Origin: a virus
Length of the DNA: 15,821 nt
Direction: 5' to 3' (one strand)
Virus genome (UHGV): UHGV-1826220
The translations under genes and the position numbers were made by a program. The notes beneath the pieces were generated by a model. The model had not been told where the DNA came from, made no database searches, and saw nothing but the letters and a program-made list of their open reading frames with translations. Below, in pieces: positions 8,573 to 15,537 of the stretch. Every line of letters begins with the position of its first letter. Within the stretch, counting starts at the first letter, position 1.

Positions 8573-9178
8573 TTACACTGGTGTGTTCAGCAAATCGTTA
8601 ACGGCATCAGATGCCGGGTTACCTGCAGCCAGCGGTGCCGGTGCCCCCTGCATCAGACGATCCAGCGCAGTGTCACTGCGCGCCTGTGCACTCTGTGGTG
8701 CTGCGGCCAGAATGCGGCGGGCCGTTTCCACGGTCATACCGGGGGTTTCTGCCAGCACGCGGGCCTGTTCTTCGCGTCCGTGAGCCTCCTCACAGTTGAG
8801 GATCCCCATAATGCGGCTGTTTTCTGCCGCAACCGCAGCGGTGATCTGCGCGTTCACGTCCGGCTGCGCCGCGCTGGCGTTTTCGCCCTCCGTCGCTGGC
8901 ACCACGTCAGTAACGTCAGCCTGCGAAGCAGTGGCTGAAACAGTTGTTGATTGAGTCTCTTTGGTCATTCGCCCTCCTGAGAGACGGGATTTACGTGCAT
9001 CCAGTGCATCACGCATGACGGTGATCGCATCGGTGCTGTTAACAAGTTCATCAGCCAGTCCGGCATCAATGGCCTCCTGACCGCTGTACACTGCAGCCTC
9101 GGTATCCAGCACAGCCTGCACGGACAGGCCGGTATATGCCGACACCTTCTGTGCAAACATCCGGCGGGTTGCATCCAT
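8573..9178 (-). CDS. Nu3: Capsid scaffolding protein gpNu3 (201 aa), translated in frame from an internal start inside C
   Basis: Established lambda arrangement: Nu3 is the C-terminal 201 codons of the C frame. The ATG at 9178-9176 (MDATRRMFAQKV...) sits exactly 201 codons before the shared stop. Not in the track because it is nested in frame. Confidence 0.65.
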   Translation of the reverse strand: MDATRRMFAQKVSAYTGLSVQAVLDTEAAVYSGQEAIDAGLADELVNSTDAITVMRDALDARKSRLSGGRMTKETQSTTVSATASQADVTDVVPATEGENASAAQPDVNAQITAAVAAENSRIMGILNCEEAHGREEQARVLAETPGMTVETARRILAAAPQSAQARSDTALDRLMQGAPAPLAAGNPASDAVNDLLNTPV

Positions 9179-9872
9179 CCGGGACTGCAGTGTTTCCCGG
9201 ACATCATCCGGTAGATGGCTGTAGGGGTTGCCATCCACCTTATGGCTGCCGCTGTAAATCAGCGTGATTTCCACGCCCTGTTTCTCCAGCGCAGCACCGT
9301 AATTACTGTGAGCCATCATGACGCCGATGGAGCCTGTCCGGGCGGTCTGCGTGACCAGACGCCGGGAGGCGGCACTGGCAAGCAGCTGACCTGCACTGCA
9401 GTTCATGTCGTTGGCCAGCGCCCATACCGGTTTTATGTCTCGCACACGGGCGATGATGTCAGCACAGTCAAATGCTCCCGCCACCATCCCGCCCGGTGTG
9501 TCCATATCCAGCAGAATGCCGTCCACCATCGGATCGCTGGCAGCCTGTTGCAGACGGGCGATAATGCCGTTGTAACCGGTCATCCCCGAATACGGCTGCA
9601 GCGCCCGCGTCCGGCTGACCAGCGTGCCGGACACCGGCAGCACGGCGATGCCGTTCATGACCTGATAACTGCGGGCCTGTCGTGGTCCGTCATCATCACC
9701 GGATAACGCCAGCGCCGCGGGTGCCTCTCCGGCAGTCAGGCTGTCGCCGGATACTGCATCCGTCAGGCGGCTGATCCCAAGCTGGCCTGCAAGCGCACAA
9801 AAGAAAACCCGCGCATAGGCGGGTTCAAGCATCAGCGGCTCATTAAAGGCCATGCTGGCAATATGCGGGAGA

Positions 9873-9892
<20 letters not shown>
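8573..9892 (-). CDS. C: Prohead protease / minor capsid protein gpC (439 aa, ClpP-like S49-type peptidase), GTG start
   Basis: Track ORF 8573..10027 (484 aa) trimmed to the GTG at 9892-9890 (reads VTAELRNLPHIASMAFNEPLML...), which is preceded by GGAGAAGAG; gives the lambda gpC length and the usual ~20-nt overlap with the B 3' end. Confidence 0.85.
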
Positions 9893-13573
<3,681 letters not shown>

Positions 13574-13599
<26 letters not shown>

Positions 13600-14119
13600 T
13601 CAGCAACCCCGGTATCAGTTCATCCAGCGCGGCTGCTTTGTTCATGGCTTTGATGATATCCCGTTTCAGGAAATCAACATGTCGGTTTTCCAGTTCCGGA
13701 AAACGCCGCTGCACCGACAGGGGGATCCCGTCGAGAATACTGGCAATTTCACCTGCGATCCGCGACAGCACGAAAGTACAGAATGCGGTTTCCACCACTT
13801 CAGCGGAGTCTCTGGCATTTTTCAGCTCCTGTGCGTCGGCCTGCGCACGCGTAAGTCGATGGCGTTCGTACTCAATAGTCCCTGGCTGGAGATCTGTCTC
13901 GCTGGCCTGCCGCAGTTCTTCAACTTCCCGGCGCAGCTTTTCGTTCTCAATTTCAGCATCCCTTTCGGCATACCATCTTATAACGGCGGCAGAGTCATAA
14001 AGCACCTCATTACCCTTGCCACCGCCTCGCAGAACGGGCATTCCCTGTTCCTGCCAGTTCTGAATGGTACGGATACTCGCACCGAAAATGTCAGCCAGCT
14101 GCTTTTTGTTGACTTCCAT
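13574..14119 (-). CDS. Nu1: Terminase small subunit gpNu1 (181 aa)
   Basis: Track ORF 13574..14119(-), 181 aa, MEVNKKQLADIFGASIRTIQNWQEQGMPVLRGGGKGNEVLYD...; sits immediately next to the cosB R-sites. Confidence 0.95.
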
Positions 14120-14143
14120 TGTTCATTCCACGGCCAAAAACAG

Positions 14144-14159
14144 AGAAAGGAAACGACAG
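14144..14159 (-). promoter_or_regulatory. cosB R1 element (gpNu1 binding site)
   Basis: AGAAAGGAAACGACAG, 25-40 bp upstream of the Nu1 start; perfect inverted copy at 14185-14200. Confidence 0.75.
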
Positions 14160-14184
14160 AGGCCCAAAAGCTCGTTTTCAGCAC

Positions 14185-14200
14185 CTGTCGTTTCCTTTCT
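14185..14200 (-). promoter_or_regulatory. cosB R2 element (gpNu1 binding site), inverted relative to R1
   Basis: CTGTCGTTTCCTTTCT is the exact reverse complement of 14144-14159. Confidence 0.75.
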
Positions 14201-14244
14201 TTTCAGGGGGTATTTTAAATAAAAACATTAAGTTACGACGAAGA

Positions 14245-14258
14245 AGAACGGAAACGCC
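14245..14258 (-). promoter_or_regulatory. cosB R3 element (gpNu1 binding site, degenerate copy)
   Basis: AGAACGGAAACGCC matches the R1 motif AGAAAGGAAACGAC at 12 of 14 positions, in the same orientation as R1. Confidence 0.65.
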
Positions 14259-14296
14259 TTAAACCGGAAAATTTTCATAAATAGCGAAAACCCGCG

Positions 14297-14308
14297 AGGT
14301 CGCCGCCC
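14297..14308 (-). other. cosN cohesive-end 12-mer (reverse complement of GGGCGGCGACCT); terminase nicking site, phage left and right ends joined here
   Basis: Plus-strand AGGTCGCCGCCC at 14297-14308, flanked by sequence I recall as the lambda left end (cosB side) and right end (cosQ side). Confidence 0.9.
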
Positions 14309-14343
14309 CGTAACCTGTCGGATCGCCGGAAAGGACCCGCAAA
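14309..14343 (-). other. cosQ-containing segment (right-end side of cosN); exact cosQ bounds not resolved
   Basis: CGTAACCTGTCGGATCGCCGGAAAGGACCCGC matches the recalled lambda right-terminal sequence with a few substitutions; cosQ is known to lie within about 30 bp of cosN on this side. Confidence 0.55.
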
Positions 14344-14360
14344 ATGATAATAATTATCAT
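14344..14360. promoter_or_regulatory. Perfect 17-bp palindrome ATGATAATAATTATCAT containing a 7-1-7 Fur-box-like inverted repeat (TGATAAT-A-ATTATCA)
   Basis: Reverse complement is identical except for the central base; matches the Fur 7-1-7 heptamer consensus. Function here is not established. Confidence 0.4.
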
Positions 14361-14507
14361 CTGCATGTCACAACGTGCATCTACGCCATCAAACCACGTC
14401 AAATAATCAATTATGACGCAGGTATCGTATTAATTGATCTGCATCAACTTAACGTAAAAACAACTTCAGACAATACAAATCAGCGACACTGAATACGGGA
14501 CAACCTC

Positions 14508-14741
14508 ATGTCAACGAAGAACAGAACCCGCAGAACAACAACCCGCAACATCCGCTTTCCTAACCAAATGATTGAACAAATTAACATCGCTCTTGATCAA
14601 AAAGGGTCCGGGAATTTCTCAGCCTGGGTCATTGAAGCCTGCCGCCGGAGACTGTGCTCAGAAAAAAGAGTTTCTTCTGAAGCAAACAAAGAAAAGAGTG
14701 ACATTACTGAATTGCTCAGAAAACAGGTCAGACCAGATTGA
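14508..14741 (+). CDS. Hypothetical small basic protein (77 aa), ribbon-helix-helix-like DNA-binding fold predicted
   Basis: Track ORF 14508..14741(+). Basic Thr/Arg-rich N-terminal arm, then a strand / helix / G-x-N turn / helix pattern (RNIRFPNQ, MIEQINIALDQ, KGSGN, FSAWVIEACRRRL) typical of Arc/MetJ/CopG proteins. No clear Shine-Dalgarno; coding status uncertain. Confidence 0.4.
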   Translation: MSTKNRTRRTTTRNIRFPNQMIEQINIALDQKGSGNFSAWVIEACRRRLCSEKRVSSEANKEKSDITELLRKQVRPD

Positions 14742-14798
14742 AGCAATTTAGATAATCGTGCAGACTACGCCCCCTCATATCACATGGAAGGTTTATCT

Positions 14799-15209
14799 AT
14801 GGATCAGGTAGTCATTTTTAAACAAATATTTGATAAAGTTCGAAACGATTTAAACTATCAATGGTTTTATTCTGAGCTAAAACGTCACAATGTCTCACAT
14901 TACATTTACTATTTAGCCACAGAGAATGTTCATATTGTATTAAAAAATGATAATACAGTGTTATTAAAGGGCCTAAAAAACATTGTGTCTGTCAAATTTT
15001 CAAAGGATAGGCATCTTATAGAAACGACCTCTAATAAGCTGAAATCCAGAGAGATCACATTTCAGGAATACAGAAGAAACCTTGCTAAAGCAGGAGTTTT
15101 TCGGTGGGTTACAAATATCCACGAACAAAAAAGATATTACTATACCTTTGATAATTCATTACTATTTACTGAAAGCATCCAGAAAACTACACAGATCTTA
15201 CCACGCTAA
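14799..15209 (+). CDS. YbcV-like (DUF1398) prophage protein, 136 aa from the second ATG (track ORF begins at 14784)
   Basis: Track ORF 14784..15209(+). The ATG at 14799 is preceded by GGAAGG 7 nt upstream, whereas 14784 has no Shine-Dalgarno. C-terminal motif ...[36 protein letters not shown]... resembles the YbcV/DUF1398 family as recalled. Strongly AT-rich codon usage unlike the structural genes. Confidence 0.6.
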
Positions 15210-15360: not shown

Positions 15361-15537
15361 TCAGATTAAATTAATCTTGACATCATAGCTTTCAAGACCC
15401 GTCATTTTTTCCCGTGCGGTAAACTGAATACTGGTAACTTCTTTCCCGGTCTTTTTCTTAAGTTCAATAATTTTTTTTGTTATATATTCAGAAATATCTG
15501 CTTCTGCTTTTGTTTTTAAGTTTTCAATATTCATCAT
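15361..15537 (-). CDS. Hypothetical small protein (58 aa; 57 aa if the second ATG at 15534 is used), charged and Lys-rich
   Basis: Own translation of the reverse complement: MMNIENLKTKAEADISEYITKKIIELKKKTGKEVTSIQFTAREKMTGLESYDVKINLI, stop at 15363-15361. AAGAGGAA Shine-Dalgarno directly upstream; a TATAAT hexamer on the minus strand at 15573-15578. Below the 60-aa cutoff of the ORF track. Confidence 0.5.
   Translation of the reverse strand: MMNIENLKTKAEADISEYITKKIIELKKKTGKEVTSIQFTAREKMTGLESYDVKINLI

Follow-up and report, generated by a model that had tools for sequence, protein, structure and literature searches.

The palindrome at positions 14344-14360 of the virus genome UHGV-1826220 very probably serves the host ferric uptake regulator, Fur, as an operator array of high affinity. 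Among the lambda-like phages this array is a conserved component of the cos-proximal module and abuts cosQ. The palindrome itself is already known: it is the nohA/nohB Fur site of the cryptic prophages of E. coli K-12. What appears to be unreported is that a top-ranking Fur array is paired with cosQ in lambda and in most of its relatives. The cos region of lambda contains a Fur box that ranks with the best in the E. coli genome, and this box is among the most widespread Fur sites of the E. coli accessory genome.

The palindrome and its place in the cos region

The window (the whole stretch of DNA that was analysed, 15,821 nt) carries lambda-type morphogenesis genes on its minus strand, the last of which encode the large and the small terminase subunits, and it looks as if it holds a complete lambda-type morphogenesis region. 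The features of the cos region and of the genes on either side of it are collected in Table 1. In alignment, the cosB of the window was near-identical to those of the K-12 prophages Qin and DLP12. The region 14120-14520 aligned over its full length, with 95-99% identity, to many lambda-like Escherichia phages, and its cos-distal half (query positions 190-401) was ~95% identical to the right end of lambda. The cosQ signal has been described, in the N15 paper, as a sequence of 7 bp that is invariant in nature. At the far side of the region, a terminator-like hairpin (15334-15313) follows the GnsA/GnsB-family gene and matches gnsB in Qin.

Table 1. Positions, strands and supporting evidence for the features around cos in the window.
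Feature	Position	Strand	Evidence
Nu1, small terminase subunit gene	13574-14119	-	Pfam Phage_Nu1, E = 2.4e-101
cosB with R-type repeats, cores at 14149, 14189 and 14250	14144-14260	-	repeat and inverted-repeat families, R-core matches
cosN, cohesive-end sequence AGGTCGCCGCCC (GGGCGGCGACCT on the minus strand)	14297-14308	-	lambda right end aligns from 14309
cosQ, packaging-termination signal, AGGACCC (reverse complement of GGGTCCT)	14332-14338	-	homologous 7 bp annotated as cosQ in the phage 434 record
Extended Fur array: 9-1-9 site 14343-14361 plus flanking hexamers	14340-14365	.	conservation in 26 backgrounds
Palindrome ATGATAATAATTATCAT (ATGATAAT-A-ATTATCAT), perfect 8-1-8	14344-14360	.	centre 14352
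Fur core TGATAAT-A-ATTATCA, perfect 7-1-7	14345-14359	.	inside ATGATAATAATTATCAT
Sigma-70-like promoter: -35 GTGACA (14371-14366), 16-nt spacer, -10 TATCAT (14349-14344)	14344-14371	-	10/12 matches
FNR-type box TTGATCTGCATCAA, perfect	14434-14447	.	expected 0.01 per window; between the Fur box and the DUF3950 gene
YlcI/YnfO-like gene, first accessory gene	14508-14741	+	Pfam DUF3950, E = 5e-21; arranged as ynfO in Qin and ylcI in DLP12
YdfO/YbcV-like gene, second accessory gene	14784-15209	+	Pfam DUF1398, E = 1.7e-46
GnsA/GnsB-family gene, beyond the accessory genes	15361-15537	-	Pfam E = 3e-35

The first-pass annotation of this DNA had reported a perfect 17-mer palindrome with a 7-1-7 core, and we found it exactly where it had been placed. 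The palindrome is separated from cosQ by 5 nt, from the cohesive-end sequence by 35 nt and from the ATG at 14508 by 147 nt; for the last two distances the annotation had given about 37 and about 150 nt, values that needed only slight correction (by at most 2 nt where compared closely). From the Nu1 ATG, its centre is 233 nt upstream. The annotation had also named a near-identical palindrome at the same place in lambda, and alignment bore this out: the homologous lambda sequence is GTGATAATGATTATCATC, with a perfect core (TGATAAT-G-ATTATCA), and it differs from that of the window only in the centre base and in the outermost pair. In lambda coordinates the core occupies 48452-48466 and cosQ 48473-48479.

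The 7-1-7 consensus TGATAATNATTATCA was matched at 14 of 14 positions by the palindrome, with no other such match in the window. When 17-mer matches with up to 3 mismatches were counted, 0.01 was expected per window and two were observed, a single site counted once per strand; in 200 shuffles this number was never reached. The 19-bp Fur consensus GATAATGATAATCATTATC was matched at 16 of 19 positions at 14340-14358 (0.01 expected, with a match in 1 of 200 shuffles). By hand count on the sequence, a second, overlapping Fur site, shifted by 6 bp and centred at 14358, scored 9/14. The palindromy alone is weak evidence, because the window contains a second perfect 8-1-8 palindrome, GCGCAGTG-T-CACTGCGC, at 8665-8681, and because at least one was present in 29% of the block shuffles of the window. 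The improbable part is the match to the Fur consensus, rather than the palindromy. The palindrome at 8665-8681 is located inside a 484-aa ORF of the minus strand (8573-10027).

Fur binding at the nohA and nohB sites and in other strains

The first-pass annotation knew of no description of the palindrome. In this it was mistaken: the site stands in the Fur literature as nohB, cited to 1994, and as nohA, in work of 2000 and 2007. Alignment of both K-12 loci revealed that the nohB/nohD locus of DLP12 carries a 17-mer identical to that of the window, and that the nohA locus of Qin carries the lambda allele, whose 7-1-7 core differs from that of the window only in the free centre base. Chen 2007 (PMC2189734) placed the nohA Fur site of prophage Qin at -233 and gave it 22.3 bits, with another site 6 bp from it; the offset of -233 is the one found between the palindrome and the Nu1 ATG in the window. 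That paper cites an earlier in vivo selection for Fur-binding DNA, from which a nohA fragment was obtained (Vassinova and Kozyrev 2000). A nohA oligonucleotide, which represents the Qin allele, gave a gel shift with 150 nM Fur (PMC2189734); the allele shared by the window and DLP12 was itself not part of that shift. The nohB site of prophage DLP12 scored 25.3 bits, ranked third among the strongest Fur clusters of the K-12 genome and formed a cluster of 4 Fur sites in 28 bp (Chen 2007, PMC2189734), and the same paper names a Fur titration study of 1994 (Stojiljkovic 1994) as its source for nohB. When the coordinates of Chen 2007 were converted to NC_000913.3, both fell on the centre base of the palindrome, in Qin and in DLP12 respectively. 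Calibration was done on the K-12 interval 577-627 kb, where the classical Fur operators of fepA-fes, fepD-entS and fepB-entC are located. In this interval the DLP12 box was the only one to score 14/14; entC reached 13, and the entS and fepA-fes regions 11 each.

The nohA/nohB Fur papers treat the site as that of a cryptic-prophage gene promoter, and mention of cos, cosQ or lambda was not found in them. In the literature searched, nothing relevant linked Fur with cosQ, cos or terminase.

An independent case of Fur occupancy next to a cos site comes from a survey of the Fur pan-regulon (Gao et al. 2023, PMC10164565). In strain CFT073 that study placed a ChIP-exo peak at 1424699-1424711, in iron-replete conditions only, at an intergenic position beside a prophage terminase gene. 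We fetched this region and found that the peak sequence, ATTATTCTCGTTT, is the right half of a box, GTGATAATTATTCTCG, located 6 nt from GGGTCCT. The CFT073 box is a diverged allele, and the prophage sequence beyond it is unrelated to that of the window. Deletion of fur in CFT073 raised the expression of C_RS07340 by 2.33 log2 and that of C_RS07370 by 2.13 log2, two genes on opposite sides of the box (PMC10164565). C_RS07370 is a head gene, encoding a gpC-like S49 peptidase. Beside iss, ~0.7-1 kb from the cos-adjacent Fur box, CFT073 also carries an iron-uptake-related accessory gene, C_RS07335 (1155-1481 in our locus L125), whose 108-aa product has a TonB C-terminal domain (Pfam E = 7e-13).

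The same data contain no Fur ChIP-exo peaks assigned to nohD, nohA, ynfO or ylcI in MG1655 or W3110 (PMC10164565). In BL21(DE3) there was no Fur ChIP-exo peak between gpmA and fiu. This is the interval that we take to hold the DE3 lambda prophage. In K-12 and DE3 the near-identical copies may have lost their uniquely mapping reads, and the box may be under-called in ChIP studies for this reason. Two Fur ChIP-exo peaks of strain Sakai, P34 and P50, were considered as cos-adjacent and rejected, their positions being in the early region and in tail genes.

The effect of fur deletion on the neighbours of the box differed between strains, with expression rising on either side of the box in CFT073, falling in W3110 and staying the same in MG1655. 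The cos-flanking genes of MG1655 are almost silent in that strain (PMC10164565). In W3110, the DLP12 and Qin genes beside cos fell 4- to 40-fold, ybcV, ybcW, nohD, ynfO and ydfO at p < 0.05 and ylcI not significantly (p = 0.12; PMC10164565, Dataset 3). One possible cause of the W3110 drop is a reduced FNR activity in the fur mutant. The same dataset shows appY down ~17-fold.

With alleles of the palindrome bound in published work, and the window copy tied to them by sequence identity, Fur very probably binds the palindrome. The proposal of a Fur operator in the first-pass annotation is supported by the consensus match, the identity to the DLP12 site, the published selection, gel shift and information scores, the 1994 titration study cited for nohB, and the ChIP-exo peak of CFT073.

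Conservation of the array next to cosQ

IMG/VR was scanned for cosQ-N20-cosN, with nothing else constrained, which gave 98 unique sites. In these, the best 7-1-7 score just upstream of cosQ was bimodal, either 11-14 or 5-8. The box was present in 65 of the 98 sites, and the distance between its centre and the first base of cosQ was 11-15 nt, in most cases 13-14 nt. The box always adjoins cosQ where it is present, yet the spacing is not rigid and varies by 4 nt. A match of at least 11/14 was seen in 74 of 100 unique cos-upstream sequences, against 0.003 expected per sequence, an expectation based on the frequency of such matches in the same loci (2.3e-4 per position). Grouping the sites by the sequence beyond the box yielded 42 independent backgrounds, 26 with the box and 16 without it.

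Even in sites whose cosQ-cosN spacer departs from that of lambda at up to 10 of its 20 positions the box is retained, and it is better conserved than this spacer. Across the 26 backgrounds, conservation extends from 13 nt distal of the centre through cosQ and is near zero beyond the edge of the array. The conserved pattern, T-G-y-A-A-w-T GATAAT n ATTATC a/g-T-T-T, has the conserved bases of the Fur logo (T-7, G-6, A-5, T-4, A-3, T+3, T+5 and C+6), a free centre base, and A or T at positions 8-9. A T at -13 (21 of 26 backgrounds) and a G at -12 (16 of 26) mark the second Fur site, shifted by 6 bp; overlapping Fur sites 6 bp apart constitute a multi-dimer arrangement (Chen 2007, PMC2189734). The sequence-specific pattern, maintained without compensating changes, points to Fur itself as the selected feature and argues against an RNA hairpin. 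Extra hexamers of the GATAA/TTATC type were observed 15-40 nt distal of the box in several unrelated backgrounds (L018, L021, L027, L033 and L047 among them), which suggests longer Fur arrays in some phages.

The box occurs in Escherichia, in two Citrobacter species and in Kluyvera, and among the named phages in lambda, phi80 (with a perfect core) and N15 (11/14); the cos of Gifsy-1 has no box. In a genome-wide scan with the pattern, the usable hits among the matches listed were those in Citrobacter (two loci) and Kluyvera, most of the others being chance matches in high-GC genomes. A 91-nt segment containing the box was found in 4485 of 5426 complete E. coli genomes, in up to 8 copies per genome. 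Two metagenome-assembled contigs that the pattern scan also brought up (L191 and L210, one of them labelled Chromatiales) carried the exact right end of lambda up to the cohesive end, followed by unrelated sequence; this lambda DNA looks like control or vector contamination of the assemblies. In the phi80 record, a feature named 'cosQ; aka R4 region' (46084-46138) spans the Fur box. The phi80 gene ABF05_gp51 (L248, 11-241), ~0.9 kb from the box, encodes a 76-aa protein annotated as 'putative Fur-regulated protein', with no Pfam match.

Promoters, neighbouring genes and possible roles of the array

In the window, the minus-strand promoter-like site faces Nu1 across cosQ and cosN, with the Fur box lying over its -10 and spacer; this overlap is common to the lambda family, to which the window belongs. 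A promoter scan found 2 sites versus 3.7 expected, no more than in shuffles, and the minus-strand site is not statistically notable alone. Its GTGACA -35 was not conserved in the other backgrounds, and no plus-strand promoter was predicted near the box in the window. Two candidate partners of the box were tried across the backgrounds and rejected: a cos-directed promoter, for which 6 of 26 backgrounds had a -35 matching at 4/6 or better, versus 14% of controls (no enrichment), and an accessory-directed one, in 1 of 26 backgrounds versus 1% of controls. As no promoter accompanies the box on either strand, the classical promoter-operator pair is not the conserved unit. According to mechanical ORF calls, the gene next to the box is either divergent (the window and CFT073) or co-directional and ending at the box (N15 and phi80).

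The perfect FNR-type box is centred ~67 nt before the ATG at 14508, and the Fur box lies ~88 nt further out. This FNR sequence is the ChIP-chip and gel-shift site of nohA/ydfO and nohB (PMC1802558), and a nohA/nohB promoter fusion was weak and FNR-independent in the same work. For the accessory genes, the FNR box is more likely than the Fur box to be the control element. An FNR/CRP-type identity (TTGAT-N4-ATCAA) was considered for the palindrome and rejected, the geometry being 7-1-7 and the true FNR box being separate. Myers 2013 grouped nohA with operons in which Fur is thought to mask FNR control. The FNR ChIP-seq summit given there for nohA (old Qin coordinate 1634625, equivalent to 14352-14353 in the window) falls on the centre of the Fur box, ~88-89 bp from the FNR box, and all ten loci in that table are Fur-repressed operons; the offset might reflect cross-reaction of the antibody with Fur, or co-occupancy. 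A paper on ydfO and ionic liquids has no bearing on Fur. The accessory genes are swapped between phages and the box stays with cos, also where those genes are absent. The lack of a conserved promoter, the mixed neighbours and the accessory genes' own FNR box together indicate that the box belongs to the cos module rather than to the accessory genes.

How might such an array act? In iron-replete cells, Fe2+-Fur dimers would sit on the 9-1-9 site and on the overlapping site 6 bp away, with a predicted footprint of ~14337-14367 that would extend over the -10 and spacer of the minus-strand promoter. This putative promoter, the sole sigma-70-like one between cos and the accessory genes, would read into the terminase genes. 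Fur would then shut off transcription starting at or crossing the cos boundary in lysogens, and iron limitation would lift the block. Such silencing of transcription into the terminase genes is a tentative reading, which we consider quite possible; it fits the promoter overlap in the window and the derepression of a head gene in CFT073. By analogy with IHF at cosB, Fur could also be a recruited host factor of the cos module itself, a proposal that we regard as unlikely. As such a factor it might silence or insulate the terminase operon in lysogens, leaving the chromosomal cos uncut, it might make cosQ and cosN easier to recognise as packaging ends, or it might act on the right DNA end. If this were true, one step in the development of a lambda-like phage would depend on the iron status of the cell. 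A connection of this kind was found neither in the Fur literature nor in the lambda packaging literature searched.

The main rival to Fur silencing is that the box is an accessory cos element, at which bound Fur or a phage protein aids terminase at cosQ and cosN or at the right DNA end, transcriptional control being incidental. The first-pass annotation had named an element of packaging termination as its alternative. Several observations speak for it: the constant neighbourhood of the centre and cosQ (11-15 nt) in 65 unique sequences, the persistence of the box with cos while all beyond 13 nt distal of the centre is replaced, its higher conservation than the cosQ-cosN spacer, the lack of a conserved promoter alongside, and its position in N15 and phi80, where a co-directional gene ends at the box and there is no divergent gene that it could regulate. 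The phi80 feature that includes the R4 region spans the box as well, and so does a published cos fragment (lambda 48446-182); as this fragment contains the box, the construct would not have revealed a role for it. However, 16 of the 42 backgrounds have no box, that of Gifsy-1 included, so it is not found at every functional lambda-type cos. The distance to cosQ, moreover, varies by 4 nt, and the palindrome is unmentioned in the packaging literature searched. Wieczorek and Feiss reportedly found in 2001 that the cosQ-cosN spacing is strict, and their saturation mutagenesis is said to have defined cosQ as only 7 bp. On balance we think a cos element of this kind improbable. An operator of the accessory genes at 14508-15209, giving iron-dependent expression in lysogens, was what the first-pass annotation had proposed, and here the results did not support it. 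In CFT073 the loss of fur derepresses the gene unit that lies across the box from the terminase genes, a promoter-like site (TTACAG-18-TATTAT) abuts the CFT073 box, and the grouping of nohA by Myers 2013 with Fur-masked FNR operons would agree with such an operator. Against this, the box of the window is 147 nt from the ATG and ~88 nt beyond the nearer FNR box, with no plus-strand promoter predicted nearby; the loss of fur brought no rise in K-12, where ynfO, ydfO and ybcV went significantly down and ylcI non-significantly down in W3110 and nothing changed in MG1655; and the box is kept where the accessory genes are absent. We rate an accessory-gene operator as distinctly improbable.

Still less probable, and in our view very unlikely, is that the palindrome and the adjoining T-run form a weak intrinsic terminator or RNA hairpin, which would stop transcription that is not Q-antiterminated from entering the terminase genes. 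A TTT(T) after the palindrome is conserved on the cos-directed strand, two of the backgrounds that lack the box have a strong hairpin (~-13 kcal/mol) directly at cosQ, and a weak hairpin with a T-run occupies this place in the Gifsy-1 type. The stem in the window, however, is A/U-rich and weak: a 51-nt fold had z = -1.4 versus shuffles, and a terminator scan made no call. Variant boxes lose pairing without compensating changes yet stay near the Fur consensus, positions +8 to +10 of the Fur site account for the T-run equally well, and most backgrounds without the box have no terminator there. An alternation of box or terminator at one position was likewise rejected, a strong terminator being present in only 2 of the 16 backgrounds without the box, besides the weak hairpin of the Gifsy-1 type. 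At the locus L006 (1129-1175, minus strand), in ~11 related IMG/VR loci and in L100, the terminator GGCCGGAGAAATCCGGCTTTTTT lies against cosQ, with no Fur box; its 47-nt segment folds at -14 kcal/mol, and its orientation is such that it stops transcription heading into cos. That the palindrome is a functionless product of AT-rich sequence can practically be dismissed. Perfect 8-1-8 palindromes are not rare, as the second one in the window and the shuffles illustrate, but chance does not account for so close a fit to the Fur consensus, for the Fur binding in published work, or for a box that recurs at one position in 26 unrelated backgrounds where 0.003 are expected per sequence. A Fur operator array is the reading that we prefer, and we see in it a modestly interesting and easily tested lead, which might show whether host iron sensing touches terminase expression or DNA packaging.

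Among the known systems, the closest are nohB/nohD of DLP12 and nohA of Qin, which represent the homologous locus, with the same 233 nt to the Nu1-type gene and the same flanks of cos and ylcI/ynfO. These two sites belong to cryptic prophages, whereas that of the window lies in a seemingly complete lambda-type morphogenesis region. The fepA-fes, fepD-entS, fepB-entC and fhuF operators share with the window box the consensus and the overlapping arrays with 6-bp spacing. Classical Fur operators, however, overlap defined iron-acquisition promoters and are strongly derepressed in fur mutants, while the window box has no conserved promoter, lies beside a packaging signal and shows no consistent effect on expression. 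With cosQ, earlier called the R4 region, the box has in common its place, 5 nt away, and its inheritance together with cosQ and cosN; cosQ is an invariant 7 bp, whereas about one third of the cos contexts lack the box, and its distance from cosQ varies by up to 4 nt. The IHF site I1 in cosB is likewise a site for a host DNA-binding protein that is built into cos, but for IHF at cosB an architectural role in the initiation of packaging has been demonstrated, whereas for Fur a packaging role is hypothetical.
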